Assembly: GCF_003334315.1 (NCBI RefSeq)
Contig: NZ_QOWR01000006.1
Length of the DNA stretch: 64,000 bases
Reading direction: 5' to 3' (one strand)
From: Escherichia coli
GTDB lineage: Bacteria; Pseudomonadota; Gammaproteobacteria; Enterobacterales; Enterobacteriaceae
The stretch's first letter is position 1. The number at the start of each line of letters is the position of its first letter. The position numbers and the translations under genes are program-made. The notes under the pieces are model-generated. The model made no database searches. It saw only the letters and a list, made by a program, of their open reading frames with translations, and had not been told where the DNA came from. Shown piece by piece: positions 40,363 to 48,975 of this stretch.

Positions 40363-41580
40363 TTACAGCTGATGATAACCAGAAAGGAAACGCGCGAACT
40401 TGCTCAAAGACAGCTCGATATCATCGACACGCGGTAGCGTGACAATGCGGAAGTGATCCGGCCACGGCCAGTTGAATGCCGTCCCTTGCACCAACAGAAC
40501 TTTTTCCTGCAACAGGAAATCCAGCACCATTTTCTGATCGTCGTGAATGTTAAAGCGTTTGGCGTCGATTTTCGGGAACATATACAGCGCACCACGAGGT
40601 TTCACGCAGGAAACGCCCGGAATATCGTTGATCAGTTCCCACGCGCGGTTACGCTGCTCATAAAGACGACCGCCAGGGGTAATAAATTCACTGATGCTCT
40701 GATAACCACCCAGCGCGGTCTGAATTGCGTGTTGCGCAGGAACGTTAGCACACAGGCGCATTGAAGCCAGCATTTCCAGACCTTCGATGTAGCCTTTGGC
40801 GTGTTTTTTCGGCCCGTTCAACACCATCCACCCCTGACGGAAGCCTGCAACGCGGTACGTTTTCGACAGTCCGTTAAAGGTAATGGTCAGCAGGTCAGGT
40901 GCCAGCGGCGCAATTGAGTGATGCTCAGCGTCGTCGTAAAGAATTTTGTCATAAATTTCATCGGCGAAGATAATGAGATTATGCTGACGTGCAATCTCCA
41001 CAATCTCCATTAAAAGCTCTTTGGAATATACCGCGCCGGTTGGGTTATTTGGGTTGATAATAACGATCCCACGCGTACGAGGCGTAATTTTAGCGCGAAT
41101 ATCATCGAGGTCCGGGAACCAGTCAGAGGATTCATCGCAAAGATAATGCACCGCTTTACCGCTGGAAAGCGAAACCGCCGCGGTCCATAGTGGGTAATCT
41201 GGTGCAGGAACCAACATTTCGTCCCCGCTGTTCAGCAATGCCTGCATTGCCTGAACGATAAGCTCCGATACACCATTGCCGATGTAAATATCTTCCACGG
41301 TAACATCACGCATGCCACGAGCCTGGTAGTGCTGCATGATGGCTTTACGCGCGGAGTAAAGACCTTTGGAATCGCAATACCCTTGAGCGGTAGGCAGGTT
41401 GCGTATCACGTCAACGAGGATTTCATCTGGCGCGTCAAAACCGAACGGGGCTGGGTTGCCGATGTTCAGTTTCAGTACCTTGTTACCTTCTTCTTCCAGG
41501 CGTTTTGCTTCTTTCAGCACCGGACCACGGATGTCATAACAGACATTCTCTAATTTGCTGGATTTTTCAATGGGGGACAT
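40363..41580 (-). CDS. alaA: Glutamate-pyruvate aminotransferase AlaA (YfbQ), 405 aa
   Basis: Class I PLP aminotransferase; Lys in NGLSKTYRVAGFRQGW; recognised sequence. Confidence 0.95.
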   Translation of the reverse strand: MSPIEKSSKLENVCYDIRGPVLKEAKRLEEEGNKVLKLNIGNPAPFGFDAPDEILVDVIRNLPTAQGYCDSKGLYSARKAIMQHYQARGMRDVTVEDIYIGNGVSELIVQAMQALLNSGDEMLVPAPDYPLWTAAVSLSSGKAVHYLCDESSDWFPDLDDIRAKITPRTRGIVIINPNNPTGAVYSKELLMEIVEIARQHNLIIFADEIYDKILYDDAEHHSIAPLAPDLLTITFNGLSKTYRVAGFRQGWMVLNGPKKHAKGYIEGLEMLASMRLCANVPAQHAIQTALGGYQSISEFITPGGRLYEQRNRAWELINDIPGVSCVKPRGALYMFPKIDAKRFNIHDDQKMVLDFLLQEKVLLVQGTAFNWPWPDHFRIVTLPRVDDIELSLSKFARFLSGYHQL

Positions 41581-42496
41581 GAATCTTGACCTTTTTTGCT
41601 GTTATCGCCACTCCCTGCCGTGGAAGTCAGCTTAGAACAATGTACTCCCCCAGGACGGTGTTTTGAAGGTCTGCAGAATAAGATTTTGCCAGAGGGGAAG
41701 GCTCGATTGTGCTGTTAATAACTTAATAATGACAAAATAATGAGGTGTATATGCTTTACATGCAATGTTATATAGTGAATTGTTCTGATTCTTAATTGTA
41801 AGTCTGGTTTTTTTATCTGTAAGATAATTGTGTGAAAATGCCTCATTTAAGAATTCACTAATGAAACGCGATGATGATATTTCCGCATTACGGAGAGTTT
41901 AACAGCGTGATGATTTCCGAGGTGTCGTAATGGGGGCAAGGTGTGAAACTATTGTTAAGCGGAATTAATGAATGAGGATGATGCTAATTAATTATTATTT
42001 AATATTCAAAAAGGTTTTGATGTGCTTATTAATAATAGAAGATTACTTTGCCTAACATAACATAACTTTGCATCAGATAATTCGCAATGACCCTTATAAA
42101 TAAAAGGTTTTTGGGGTAAAATGCTCGCATAAATGACGGATCCCTGCTCTTGATGCCGCCTCACCATTGCTGTTTGTACGTGTTCGCGTATGACCAGCGA
42201 TGCTGCACGAGAGTGGAACAAGGACTCACATTTACATTTATACAAACACGCGCATGTCATAAATAGAAAAGAGTGAGTAACTTAATAGATATGCGATCCC
42301 TGAAGATATATTCTGTGATCTACTTCAGGCATTATAACGGAACAATGTGAGTCGCTTTTTTAGTGCAACTCATATGCATTTTTACTTTCGTCCGGGTTCC
42401 GGATGAAACTGCCAGGGAGGCACATTACAAATGGAATTGCTTGTTTGTGTGTGCACAGCATTAACCAGCTCAGTATGAGTCGCCAGTAAGTGATAA

Positions 42497-43438
<942 letters not shown>

Positions 43439-43484
43439 TCGACGGACGATAGATAATTCCTGAGACAATAGTGTAAAAAACGAG

Positions 43485-43522
43485 CCGCTGGGGGTGTTTT
43501 AAACCCCAGCGGCTTTTTTTTA
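43485..43522 (+). terminator. Intrinsic terminator downstream of lrhA
   Basis: gccgctgggg...ccccagcggc stem followed by a T8 run. Confidence 0.8.
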
Positions 43523-44068
43523 GTAAAAATCCTTCCTCGCATAGTGCAGAACGTACAAAACTGTTCATTTTTCAATCACCAGAGATTCACGTCCCGAACG
43601 CACAAATAATCGCCTGAAAAAAATCACCTGCTACAATGATGTTAAAAAATACGTAAATTTGTTGCTGCGTTTTTGTTATGGAATGACAAAAGCGTGTCAC
43701 AGATCAAGAAAATACTCTCTTTTGGGGGGAGGAATCGACACAAATTCCTGTCAAAATAGACCCGTATTTTTTCCATTGCTTCACAACGGACACGATTCAA
43801 CAACATCTAATTATCCTGGAGTCGTCAAGGATCTGGGGTGAAAGGGCATTAAATGCTAATGGTGTTGATATTATGTAAACTAATGTGAAGAAACTTTTGT
43901 TAAAGTTGACAAAAGGTTATAGAAAGGAGTAAAAGACCACATCAATTAGCTGTATAAAAGAATTTCTACAGTGATTGTAAGGTTTTTTTTATTCCTCCCC
44001 ATGAATCGATGTGGCGTCCATCTGCCGTGAAGAGCAGTGAATCTGGCGCTACTTTTGATGAGTAAGCA

Positions 44069-44512
44069 ATGAGTATGTCAACATCCACTGAAGTCATCGC
44101 TCATCACTGGGCATTCGCTATCTTTCTTATCGTTGCCATTGGCCTGTGTTGCCTGATGCTGGTAGGCGGTTGGTTTTTAGGCGGTCGCGCACGCGCGAGG
44201 TCGAAAAACGTGCCGTTTGAATCCGGTATCGACTCGGTCGGCTCCGCCCGCTTACGCCTGTCCGCCAAGTTTTATCTGGTGGCCATGTTCTTCGTTATCT
44301 TCGACGTTGAAGCGCTGTATCTGTTCGCATGGTCAACCTCTATCCGCGAAAGCGGCTGGGTAGGCTTTGTGGAAGCTGCAATTTTTATTTTTGTGTTACT
44401 GGCAGGTCTGGTTTATCTGGTGCGTATTGGCGCGCTGGACTGGACGCCCGCGCGTTCACGCCGCGAGCGTATGAACCCGGAAACGAACAGTATCGCTAAT
44501 CGTCAACGCTAA
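44069..44512 (+). CDS. nuoA: NADH:quinone oxidoreductase subunit A, 147 aa
   Basis: Recognised sequence; first gene of a 13-gene co-directional nuo operon. Confidence 0.95.
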
Positions 44513-48923: not shown

Positions 48924-48975
48924 CCGAATTTCGATTAACGCTCGGTCCCTGACCGAGAAAACTGGAAGCATGCTA

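Follow-up and report, generated by a model that had tools for sequence, protein, structure and literature searches.

How much regulatory information is carried by the long non-coding DNA that precedes the nuoA-N operon, and how much of that DNA acts upstream of transcription rather than within the transcript itself? We addressed this question in a 64,000-nt stretch of Escherichia coli DNA (the window), in which the lrhA-nuoA spacer occupies 630 bp (43439-44068, with lrhA ending at 43438 and the nuoA ATG at 44069). Compared with K-12 MG1655 (2405073-2405702, reverse strand), 627/630 bases of this spacer are the same; one of the 3 differences falls on the last base of the -10 hexamer (43935, G for A) and the two others lie in the variable part. 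A sequence-only reading of this DNA had described about 550 bp of AT-rich non-coding sequence between the lrhA terminator and nuoA, and our analysis confirmed this: the stretch 43523-44068 measures 546 bp, has a G+C content of 37.9% (vs. 52.0% in the whole window and 50-53% in the flanking genes), and has no annotated feature under it among 5,424 complete E. coli genomes. Its left boundary is set by the lrhA terminator, a 12-bp G+C-rich hairpin (43482-43519) with a T8 run ending at 43522, whose predicted fold of -26.1 kcal/mol (z = -4.87) was matched in stability by 0/200 shuffles. Across relatives the T-run of this terminator is conserved and the stem moderately so; a simple terminator scan missed the hairpin because of its 10-nt loop.

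We interpret 43523-44068 as cis-regulatory DNA followed by the transcribed leader of an operon, nuoA-N, which encodes NADH dehydrogenase I (complex I), and place the probability of this reading at roughly 90%. The earlier view that the whole stretch is upstream regulatory DNA needs to be narrowed: it holds for only ~300 bp (43638-43940), as the last 128 bp are transcribed leader and the first ~115 bp (43523-43637) are unconstrained in sequence. Taken overall, the nuo control region, at which regulators of oxygen, nitrate and carbon responses converge, is ordinary, already known biology, with one modest uncharacterised lead, the leader hairpin. The features discussed below are collected in the following table.

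Table 1. Features of the lrhA-nuoA spacer and the start of nuoA, in window coordinates
Feature	Position	Strand	Description
lrhA intrinsic terminator	43482-43522	+	Hairpin GAGCCGCUGGGG/CCCCAGCGGCUU, then U8; left boundary of the stretch
Variable A+T-rich spacer	43523-43637		Length conserved (about 119 +/- 1 bp), sequence not
Distal ArcA site (nuoA2)	43640-43682	+	Three direct repeats TGTTAAAAAATACGTAAATTTGTTGCTGCGTTTTTGTTATGGA; -259 to -301
Block B	43683-43716		Inverted repeat TGACA-N6-TGTCA, then CAGATCAAGAAAATAC; conservation 0.94
Block C	43726-43758		GGGGGGAGGAAT, variable 8-nt spacer, ATTCCTGTCAAAATAG; arms near-invariant
Block D	43786-43803	-	ACGGACACGATTCAACAAC; conservation 1.00; reverse strand TGAATCG, a Cra-like half-site
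Older annotated upstream start	43806	+	263-nt leader
Block E	43843-43861		AAAGGGCATTAAATGCTAA (GCAT-N3-ATGC); conservation about 0.8-0.9
Proximal ArcA site (nuoA1)	43862-43892	+	Three direct repeats GTGTTGATATTATGTAAACTAATGTGAAGAA; -79 to -49
Core sigma-70 promoter	43906-43935	+	-35 TTGACA (43906-43911), 18-bp spacer, -10 TAAAAG (43930-43935)
Main transcription start sites	43941, 43944	+	Leaders of 128 nt and 125 nt to the nuoA ATG
5'-terminal leader hairpin and U8	43943-43990	+	Hairpin 43943-43978, U8 43983-43990
C-rich segment	43991-44010	+	AUUCCUCCCCAUGAAUCGAU; predicted single-stranded; conservation about 0.9
Terminator-like element	44011-44059	+	Outer helix 44011-44018/44045-44052, inner hairpin 44021-44026/44032-44038, U-tract UUUUGAU 44053-44059
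nuoA translation initiation and RyhB pairing site	44062-44080	+	UAAGCAAUGAGUAUGUC

The division between upstream DNA and leader is drawn by the main promoter, whose sequence is near-invariant, with the same -35/-10 spacing in 81/81 sequences and a -10 hexamer that reads TAAAAA in K-12 and in 78/81 sequences. A strict consensus promoter scan was silent at this position, as the -10 lacks its final T. Mapping of 5' ends, which had been suggested as a check, bears the promoter out: the available part of the Kim 2012 TSS-seq list gives 4,218 reads for a start at 43941 and 1,744 reads for a start at 43944, respectively 6 and 9 nt downstream of the promoter, and the upstream 51-mers listed there match the window; the same part of the list contains no Klebsiella start for nuoA. 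An RpoD holoenzyme SELEX peak has also been found in the nuoA/lrhA spacer, where this same promoter was predicted (Shimada 2014), and the Myers 2013 supplement places a sigma-70 ChIP peak at 43932 that is much stronger aerobically than anaerobically (2886 vs. 373).

The same supplement contains a second sigma-70 peak at 43774 (near -167), with values of 1576 aerobically vs. 2485 anaerobically. In the older annotation used by Park 2013 and Chareyre 2019 there are starts at 43806 and at ~43980, the latter possibly a processing site, and neither appears in the available part of the Kim 2012 list. The former also follows from the site offsets tabulated in Park 2013, and it coincides with the nuo part of the PBAD-nuoA-F primer, which begins TCTAATTATCC. 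Together, the 43774 peak and the older 43806 start suggest that a second, weaker promoter lies upstream and is used preferentially without oxygen.

Downstream of the main starts, the 128-nt leader opens with a 5' hairpin and a U-run, continues with a C-rich stretch that is conserved, and closes with a stem-loop that covaries and is followed by a U-tract. That the leader has an RNA structure of its own was not foreseen in the sequence-only reading. Folding predicts the 5' hairpin in every one of the 59 distinct orthologous sequences (mean z = -1.76), with 75-76% of cells paired and 6 pairs changed on both sides, although these counts come from a ragged alignment built from sequence alone and represent weaker covariation than that of the downstream stem-loop. 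In transcripts starting further upstream, the base of the stem could be extended by pairing of 43936-43938 with 43981-43983. We rejected the 5' hairpin and its U8 as a terminator, with no Term-seq 3' end reported there in the listed conditions. The C-rich segment is unpaired in both the minimum-energy and the centroid folds of the leader. A long-range RNA pairing between GGGGAGGAAT (43728-43737) and ATTCCTCCCC (43991-44000), which are exact reverse complements, was likewise rejected, as the two arms vary independently across genera and without compensation.

The stem-loop adjacent to nuoA was recovered by RNAalifold, with 97.5% of cells paired, compared with 23-52% when the partners were slid, and with 46 cells changed on both sides, compared with 10.7 +/- 6.6 in shuffles; 4 pairs show changes on both sides. 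Exceeding both of these controls, and with a predicted fold of -19.5 kcal/mol (z = -2.66), it has the stable, conserved stem-loop expected of an intrinsic terminator. The U-tract that follows reads UUUUGAU in E. coli and UUUUGAG, UUAUUUGG or CUUUUUUGG in other genera, being always U-rich and either short or interrupted, and the element ends 10-14 nt before the nuoA AUG. Published Term-seq data (Adams et al. 2021) include 3' ends at K-12 positions 2405086 and 2405082, which when mapped onto the window fall at 44055 and 44059, within the U-tract; their Rho score of 0.82 is not significant and their intrinsic terminator score is 11.56 (authors' threshold 3), as would be seen for Rho-independent 3' ends.

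These observations suggest that the stem-loop may be a leaky intrinsic terminator, at which some transcripts would end as an RNA of ~115 nt while the rest would read into nuoA, giving a post-initiation control step beside the RyhB site. Any termination must be partial, given that the E. coli U-tract is both short and interrupted and that nuo is well expressed. A search of the leader for means of regulating read-through found no conserved uORF, Rfam riboswitch or conserved antiterminator pairing, and the sole alternative pairing noticed (GAUG/CAUC) is not conserved in Klebsiella. We hold only tentatively, and with the odds leaning clearly against it, that the nuoA leader contains a conserved functional premature terminator that sets the fraction of transcription entering the operon, releases a functional ~115-nt RNA, or does both. 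If true, this would add to complex I control an uncharacterised layer that is shared by Enterobacteriaceae; in the first case the terminator would be a regulated attenuator near the RyhB site, gating the 15-kb complex I operon. The lead bears on post-initiation tuning of the respiratory complex that is largest and costliest in iron.

The element does not correspond to a known RNA family, a possibility we rejected because Rfam is empty for the spacer and leader: searches of 41400-44300 and 43900-44100 returned no match at E < 0.2, with the weak ones being eukaryotic miRNA/snoRNA models. We found no published characterisation of the nuoA leader hairpin in the literature. In metagenomes, ~96 of the 120 exact matches listed for the loop motif sit upstream of nuoA.

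Immediately downstream of the element, the nuoA initiation region contains the near-invariant UAAGCAAUG. RyhB pairing at the nuoA start codon has been validated through compensatory mutations, with a mutagenic primer altering 44072-44074 (Chareyre 2019). Our whole-molecule RyhB duplex prediction was uninformative (-46.8 vs. -44.1 +/- 4.9 kcal/mol for shuffled targets), and the seed-restricted prediction was borderline (p about 0.05).

A competing explanation, which we consider plausible if still short of an even chance, is that the stem-loop (44011-44052) is not a terminator and is instead a structural element of the full-length mRNA, such as a stabiliser, an insulator holding the RBS open, or an Hfq/RyhB platform. 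The 3' ends at 44055 and 44059 would then be decay intermediates trimmed to the stable hairpin, and their position 3-7 nt past the stem is also compatible with exonuclease stalling. The hairpin adjoins the validated RyhB site, such that RyhB-triggered cleavage would yield a fragment of this kind; the shortness and interruption of the U-tract fit a structural element as well, as does direct RNA-seq coverage that is higher downstream than upstream (259 upstream vs. 609 downstream). However, the terminator score far above threshold and the non-significant Rho score both argue for intrinsic termination, and strong 3' ends were recorded under each of the three growth conditions of the data set, including iron-replete LB, in which RyhB is expected to be low. 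Moreover, every genus has a U-rich tract after the stem even as the sequence of that tract varies.

In an improbable alternative, the leader would encode a 5' UTR-derived trans-acting sRNA running from 43941 to ~44057, with the conserved C-rich single strand (UUCCUCCCCAUGAAUCGAUG) as its seed and the terminator hairpin as its Hfq module. A promoter, a single-stranded seed and a terminator make up the usual layout of Hfq-dependent sRNAs, and the leader shows a comparable arrangement: transcription begins at start sites of its own under a strong promoter, the Rho-independent 3' end is well defined, carries a U-tail and has high read counts, and a near-invariant predicted single strand, the candidate seed, precedes the terminator. 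Nevertheless, such an RNA has no known target, phenotype or association with Hfq, it has no Rfam match, and we found no paper mentioning a nuoA leader sRNA or linking it to targets. The C-rich segment also overlaps a Cra-like half-site (TGAAWCG), so that its conservation could operate at the DNA level.

It is very improbable that the spacer encodes an unannotated small protein or a regulatory leader peptide (uORF), such as the 18-codon ORF at 44010-44066, whose stop lies 2 nt before the nuoA ATG. An ATG-initiated ORF does end at -3 from the nuoA ATG in E. coli, Citrobacter and some other genera, but it is missing or frameshifted in Klebsiella, Raoultella, Kluyvera, Kosakonia, Pseudescherichia and others, is preceded by no Shine-Dalgarno sequence, and shows no codon periodicity in its conservation, which tracks the RNA helix instead. 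A leader peptide was rejected, as neither the ORF at 44002 nor the one at 44010 is conserved. Hidden protein genes elsewhere in the spacer were also rejected: its four larger ORFs (37-60 aa) keep a frame open without stops in just 0-7/80 related genomes.

We made a phylogenetic footprint of 80 Enterobacteriaceae spacers, taking nuoA third-codon positions as the neutral baseline. This footprint contains about eight near-invariant blocks distributed from 43638 to 44068, extending upstream as far as -303 and rigidly spaced, with block-to-block distances fixed to ~1 bp across genera; the distance between blocks B and C, for instance, is exactly 44 bp in 81/81 sequences. Such fixed spacing may reflect a phased nucleoprotein assembly that would set promoter activity. 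In the variable spacer that precedes the blocks, identity to the window averages 0.317, near the value for unrelated sequence, but length is 118-121 bp in 77/81 sequences. Two Fis-consensus matches within it (43563-43577 and 43600-43614) are not conserved.

The reading of the spacer as a neutral A+T-rich gap, uninformative in length and composition beyond the presence of a promoter, has a negligible probability and is refuted for 43638-44068, for although the variable spacer is unconstrained and most consensus-motif matches occur at chance level, identity across the 80 genomes reaches 90% or more at half of the positions of that interval (217/431), compared with a quarter of nuoA third-codon positions (32/130), block spacing is invariant across genera, and ChIP places ArcA, FNR and sigma-70 in the region. 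The cross-genus footprint is also of practical use, marking which ~300 bp carry information along with the fixed spacing of the blocks.

The expectation that this long upstream region integrates several regulators is supported by the ArcA sites, the FNR peak, and reports of Cra and CRP binding, together with the conserved blocks described above, and the opposing picture of a single promoter beside nuoA with no upstream factor sites is not what is seen. Within the distal ArcA site, 43638-43650 and 43659-43674 are near-invariant, as is 43874-43892 at the proximal site, which also fits a CpxR-type GTAAA-N5-GTGAA box. Both site sequences in the Park 2013 ArcA ChIP supplement are identical to the window, with a score of 15.8 bits for the proximal box, and the same study reports a 2.7-fold change in nuo expression, with nuo de-repressed anaerobically in an arcA mutant. 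For FNR, the Myers 2013 supplement includes a ChIP peak at U00096.2 position 2403450, which corresponds to window ~43713 (near -228); the known nuo regulators it lists are IHF, ArcA, NarL and Fis. Binding of Cra upstream of nuo has been detected by ChIP-exo, with nuo expression lower in a cra mutant on acetate, and binding of CRP upstream of nuoA by SELEX, with nuoA promoter activity lower in a crp mutant.

Some of these inputs can be tentatively matched with conserved blocks. Block B holds an FNR-like half-site (43694-43707), and block D, which sits directly before the older 43806 start, has 2 mismatches to RSTGAAWCSNTHHW; block B may thus be an FNR site and block D a Cra site. Block E also matches the Fis consensus, with one mismatch. 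Scans and published binding data together assigned no factor firmly to blocks B, C and E, all three strongly conserved, and placed no individual NarL, IHF or Fis site. The motif scans that had been suggested as a check were not discriminating here: consensus matches for FNR, CRP, IHF, Cra, Fis and PdhR occurred at or near the shuffled-sequence rate. Matches exceeded shuffle expectation only for ArcA-like repeats (11 vs. 3.7), CpxR-like boxes and NarL heptamers (3 vs. 0.43, with two of them within ATGAGTA repeats at the nuoA start). For the CpxR-like boxes the excess was 5 vs. 1.4 expected from shuffles, the best of them overlapping the ArcA site.

The promoters of sdhC, cydA, ndh and nir/nrf are sigma-70 promoters modulated by ArcA repeats, FNR, nucleoid-associated proteins and carbon regulators, and nuo resembles them in receiving multiple inputs within a few hundred bp of A+T-rich DNA. 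It differs from these in that its blocks reach about -300 with base-pair-fixed spacing across genera, and in that its main promoter combines a perfect -35 with a poor -10. As a regulatory region, nuo is a classic multi-regulator respiratory promoter, with nothing new in kind. The K-12 nuoA-N promoter and regulatory region is reportedly the subject of work by Bongaerts et al. 1995, Wackwitz et al. 1999 and Zhang et al. 2004. It is the same locus as the one analyzed here: the promoter, the ArcA sites, the FNR peak and the RyhB site are shared, as are the inputs reported for IHF, NarL, Fis, Cra and CRP; the cross-genus footprint, the rigidity of block spacing and the leader RNA structure were not found described in the K-12 nuo papers.

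The nuoA leader is also comparable to the 5' UTR terminators of Adams et al. 2021, with which it shares a stem-loop, a U-tract and a strong non-Rho 3' end, although its 3' ends appear there as data rows that the authors neither flagged nor discussed. Unlike catalogued attenuators and 5' UTR sRNAs, it has no known ligand, leader peptide, sRNA or protein modulator. Finally, the same operon contains the nuoG RNA (Rfam RF01748, at 48926-48968), the one Rfam family anywhere in the window to attain its gathering score, which like the leader element is a conserved enterobacterial RNA structure but lies ~4.9 kb downstream inside the operon and differs from it in both sequence and structure.

The upstream region of nuoA is real, was correctly interpreted in the sequence-only reading and is already known; the one item we find beyond the literature reached is a conserved terminator-like element in the nuoA leader (the RNA transcribed from the main start sites to the nuoA ATG), which covaries across genera and carries mapped 3' ends. 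The lrhA-nuoA spacer, located from the ORF list and the sequence, is present as a single copy in 5,424 of 5,426 complete E. coli genomes, overlaps no annotated feature in those 5,424, and corresponds to K-12 MG1655 2405073-2405702 (reverse strand), from which it differs at just 43536, 43576 and 43935. Spacer identity to the window is split within the species, suggesting two diverged allele classes, since 1,043 of the 5,424 genomes are just 90-95% identical and 3,219 are at ≥99%. The stretch upstream of nuoA, described from sequence as AT-rich and non-coding, has a G+C content well below that of the window (52.0%) and contains ORFs that are not kept in related genomes, and the lrhA terminator named in the same reading was likewise confirmed. 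We also observed that lrhA's "primary" 3' end in Term-seq (K-12 2405672/2405673, window 43468-43469) lies ~13 nt upstream of the hairpin and its U tract (43482-43522), with no end listed at the hairpin itself (after U8) in the conditions covered; this offset could reflect processing or a detection problem.

Coordinates of features in and around the lrhA-nuoA spacer
Feature	Position	Details
alaA-lrhA spacer (divergent)	41581-42499	919 bp, 38.2% G+C
lrhA	42500-43438	
lrhA-nuoA spacer	43439-44068	630 bp
lrhA terminator	43482-43519	12-bp hairpin + U8; -26.1 kcal/mol, z = -4.87
Terminator-to-nuoA stretch	43523-44068	546 bp, 37.9% G+C
Unconstrained part	43523-43637	identity to window 0.317
Near-invariant block	43638-43674	
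Distal ArcA sequence	43640-43682	three repeats, -301 to -259
Near-invariant block B	43683-43716	
ATCAA half-site in block B	43694-43707	
Near-invariant block C	43726-43758	
Inverted repeat arms	43728-43737; 43991-44000	GGGGAGGAAT; ATTCCTCCCC; 255 nt apart
Near-invariant block D	43786-43803	best Cra-like half-site (consensus scan)
Near-invariant block E	43843-43861	
Proximal ArcA sequence	43862-43892	three direct repeats, -79 to -49
Near-invariant block	43874-43936	
-35 element	43906-43911	TTGACA
-10 element	43930-43935	TAAAAG; 18 bp from -35
Main starts	43941; 43944	leaders of 128 and 125 nt
5' hairpin	43943-43978	followed by U8
C-rich segment	43991-44010	near-invariant, predicted unpaired
Near-invariant block	43991-44034	
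Stem-loop, outer helix	44011-44018/44045-44052	
Stem-loop, inner hairpin	44021-44026/44032-44038	
Term-seq 3' ends	44055; 44059	K-12 2405086; 2405082; 14 and 10 nt upstream of ATG
nuoA	44069-44512	followed by nuoB
nuoG RNA (RF01748)	48926-48968	48 bits

Using NuoA as query, we compared 80 Enterobacteriaceae loci, one per species, from genera including Escherichia, Citrobacter, Salmonella, Enterobacter, Klebsiella, Kluyvera and Kosakonia. lrhA lies upstream of nuoA in all 80, and the spacer measures 623-634 bp in 60; in the few loci where it is much longer, the extra length comes from insertions immediately behind the lrhA stop codon, away from the regulatory part. Three such length outliers (loci L016, L062 from Kosakonia and L076 from Buttiauxella) have ~120 to 310 bp inserted between the stop codon and the terminator (equivalent to 43438-43485), with terminal inverted repeats in the L062 and L076 inserts, the latter of which may be an ERIC/IRU element; the nuo regulatory part is intact in all three.

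MAFFT alignment separated an essentially unconstrained upstream part from a series of near-invariant blocks, with the final bases ahead of the nuoA ATG conserved too. Measured against nuoA third-codon positions as a neutral yardstick (mean identity 0.686), 217 of 431 positions in 43638-44068 are at ≥90% identity, vs. 32 of 130 third-codon positions. Spacing is also held: blocks B and C are 44 bp apart and the -35 to -10 distance is the same in 81/81 sequences, and the distal ArcA site lies 264-266 bp from the -35 in 76/81. Such invariant spacing of the upstream blocks would reflect a phased nucleoprotein complex, whose candidate members are ArcA oligomers, Fis and IHF (by bending), NarL, Cra and CRP. 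The unconstrained part is itself held at 118-121 bp in 77/81 genomes despite its essentially unconserved sequence, and exact Fis-consensus matches in and around it are not conserved. A perfect 10-nt inverted repeat has both arms within conserved blocks, the upstream arm lying in a purine-rich one; it probably forms no RNA helix, as a comparison between genera shows no covariation of the two arms.

The main nuo promoter is fully conserved as an element, and with its strong -35 and weak -10 it fires mainly aerobically. Kim et al. 2012 (PMC3415461, supplement) list nuoA starts at U00096.2 2403222 (4,218 reads) and 2403219 (1,744 reads), whose upstream 51-mers end at the two main starts; a minor start (2403076, 40 reads; window 44087), assigned there to nuoB, lies 18 nt inside nuoA. 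Shimada et al. 2014 report RpoD holoenzyme binding in the spacer and predict the same promoter, and Myers et al. 2013 report sigma-70 ChIP peaks at 43932, much stronger aerobically, and at 43774, stronger anaerobically. The -10 reads TAAAAA in K-12 and 78/81 sequences; within the comparison set, TAAAAG is limited to this strain, a second E. coli and E. albertii, although further complete E. coli genomes have a spacer identical to that of the window, including G as the last -10 base (43935). Older starts at 43806 and ~43980, implied by the site offsets of Park et al. 2013 and a PBAD-nuoA primer of Chareyre et al. 2019, are absent from the Kim et al. list; the former may mark a second promoter, weaker and favoured under anaerobic conditions, and the latter a processing site.

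ArcA has a proximal and a distal binding site and represses nuo anaerobically: the two ChIP regions of Park et al. 2013 (PMC3798270, supplement) have sequences identical to the window, and nuo expression changed 2.7-fold. FNR occupies the distal part, with a ChIP peak at 43713 (Myers et al. 2013) adjoining the conserved ATCAA block; the same authors cite Bongaerts 1995, Wackwitz 1999 and Zhang 2004 for the known regulation by IHF, ArcA, NarL and Fis. Cra ChIP-exo shows binding upstream of nuo, whose expression on acetate is lower after cra deletion, and Cra may be the factor for block D, judging by its half-site. For CRP, SELEX binding and the effect of a crp mutation point to activation. RyhB blocks nuoA translation initiation under iron limitation; compensatory mutations validated its pairing with the start codon and the ribosome-binding site (the mutagenic primer alters 44072-44074). 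These published regulator and start-site data (ArcA, FNR, Cra, CRP and sigma-70) therefore support the view that several regulators act on this long region, which restates known biology. Consensus scans, which the sequence-only reading had proposed for FNR, ArcA, NarL, IHF and Fis, proved uninformative in DNA so rich in A+T: only NarL heptamers (two of three in ATGAGTA repeats at the nuoA start), ArcA-like repeats and a CpxR-like box overlapping an ArcA site exceeded shuffle expectation.

Within the leader, RNAalifold predicted a terminator-like stem-loop, followed by a U-rich tract in every genus. Paired cells make up 97.5% over 63 distinct sequences, vs. 23-52% with partners slid, and four pairs changed on both sides (46 double-change cells vs. 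10.7 ± 6.6 in shuffles); the E. coli stem-loop folds at -19.5 kcal/mol (z = -2.66). A metagenome contig scan, with the loop motif fixed and helix positions free, returned at least 120 exact matches; among those listed, about 96 sit ahead of nuoA and add more compensatory variants of the helix, and the rest look like chance in unrelated G+C-rich DNA. In the Term-seq tables from Adams et al. 2021 (PMC7815308), strong "orphan" 3' ends fall just downstream, with a Rho score of 0.82 (not significant) and an intrinsic terminator score of 11.56 (threshold 3); the tables link them to no characterised element, and the main text does not mention nuo. We infer that the stem-loop would act as a leaky intrinsic terminator, at which some transcripts would end as a ~115-nt RNA while the others would continue into full-length nuo mRNA. 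The chief alternative takes the same ends as decay intermediates shielded by a structural hairpin, an explanation we consider possible if somewhat improbable, and it is quite unlikely that the leader RNA would serve as a trans-acting sRNA. The terminator-like element is a modest, directly testable lead; we found no Rfam family for it and no literature description in connection with RIL-seq, UTRs or intrinsic terminators.

A second hairpin, right at the leader 5' end, is predicted in 59/59 distinct orthologous sequences (mean z = -1.76), with 75-76% of cells paired in a sequence-only alignment and six pairs changed on both sides; no Term-seq 3' end is reported at this hairpin and its U8. A conserved uORF was rejected, as many genera lack the 9- and 18-codon ORFs of E. 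coli or have them frameshifted. The nuoG RNA is the sole Rfam family to reach its gathering score (33) in the 64-kb window. Finally, the neighbouring alaA-lrhA spacer is longer still and equally A+T-rich, with a sigma-70 ChIP peak and an lrhA/yfbQ row among FNR peaks (Myers et al. 2013), and Term-seq orphan 3' ends at K-12 2406933 (window 42208) and 2406691 (window 42450), the latter 50 nt upstream of the lrhA ATG.
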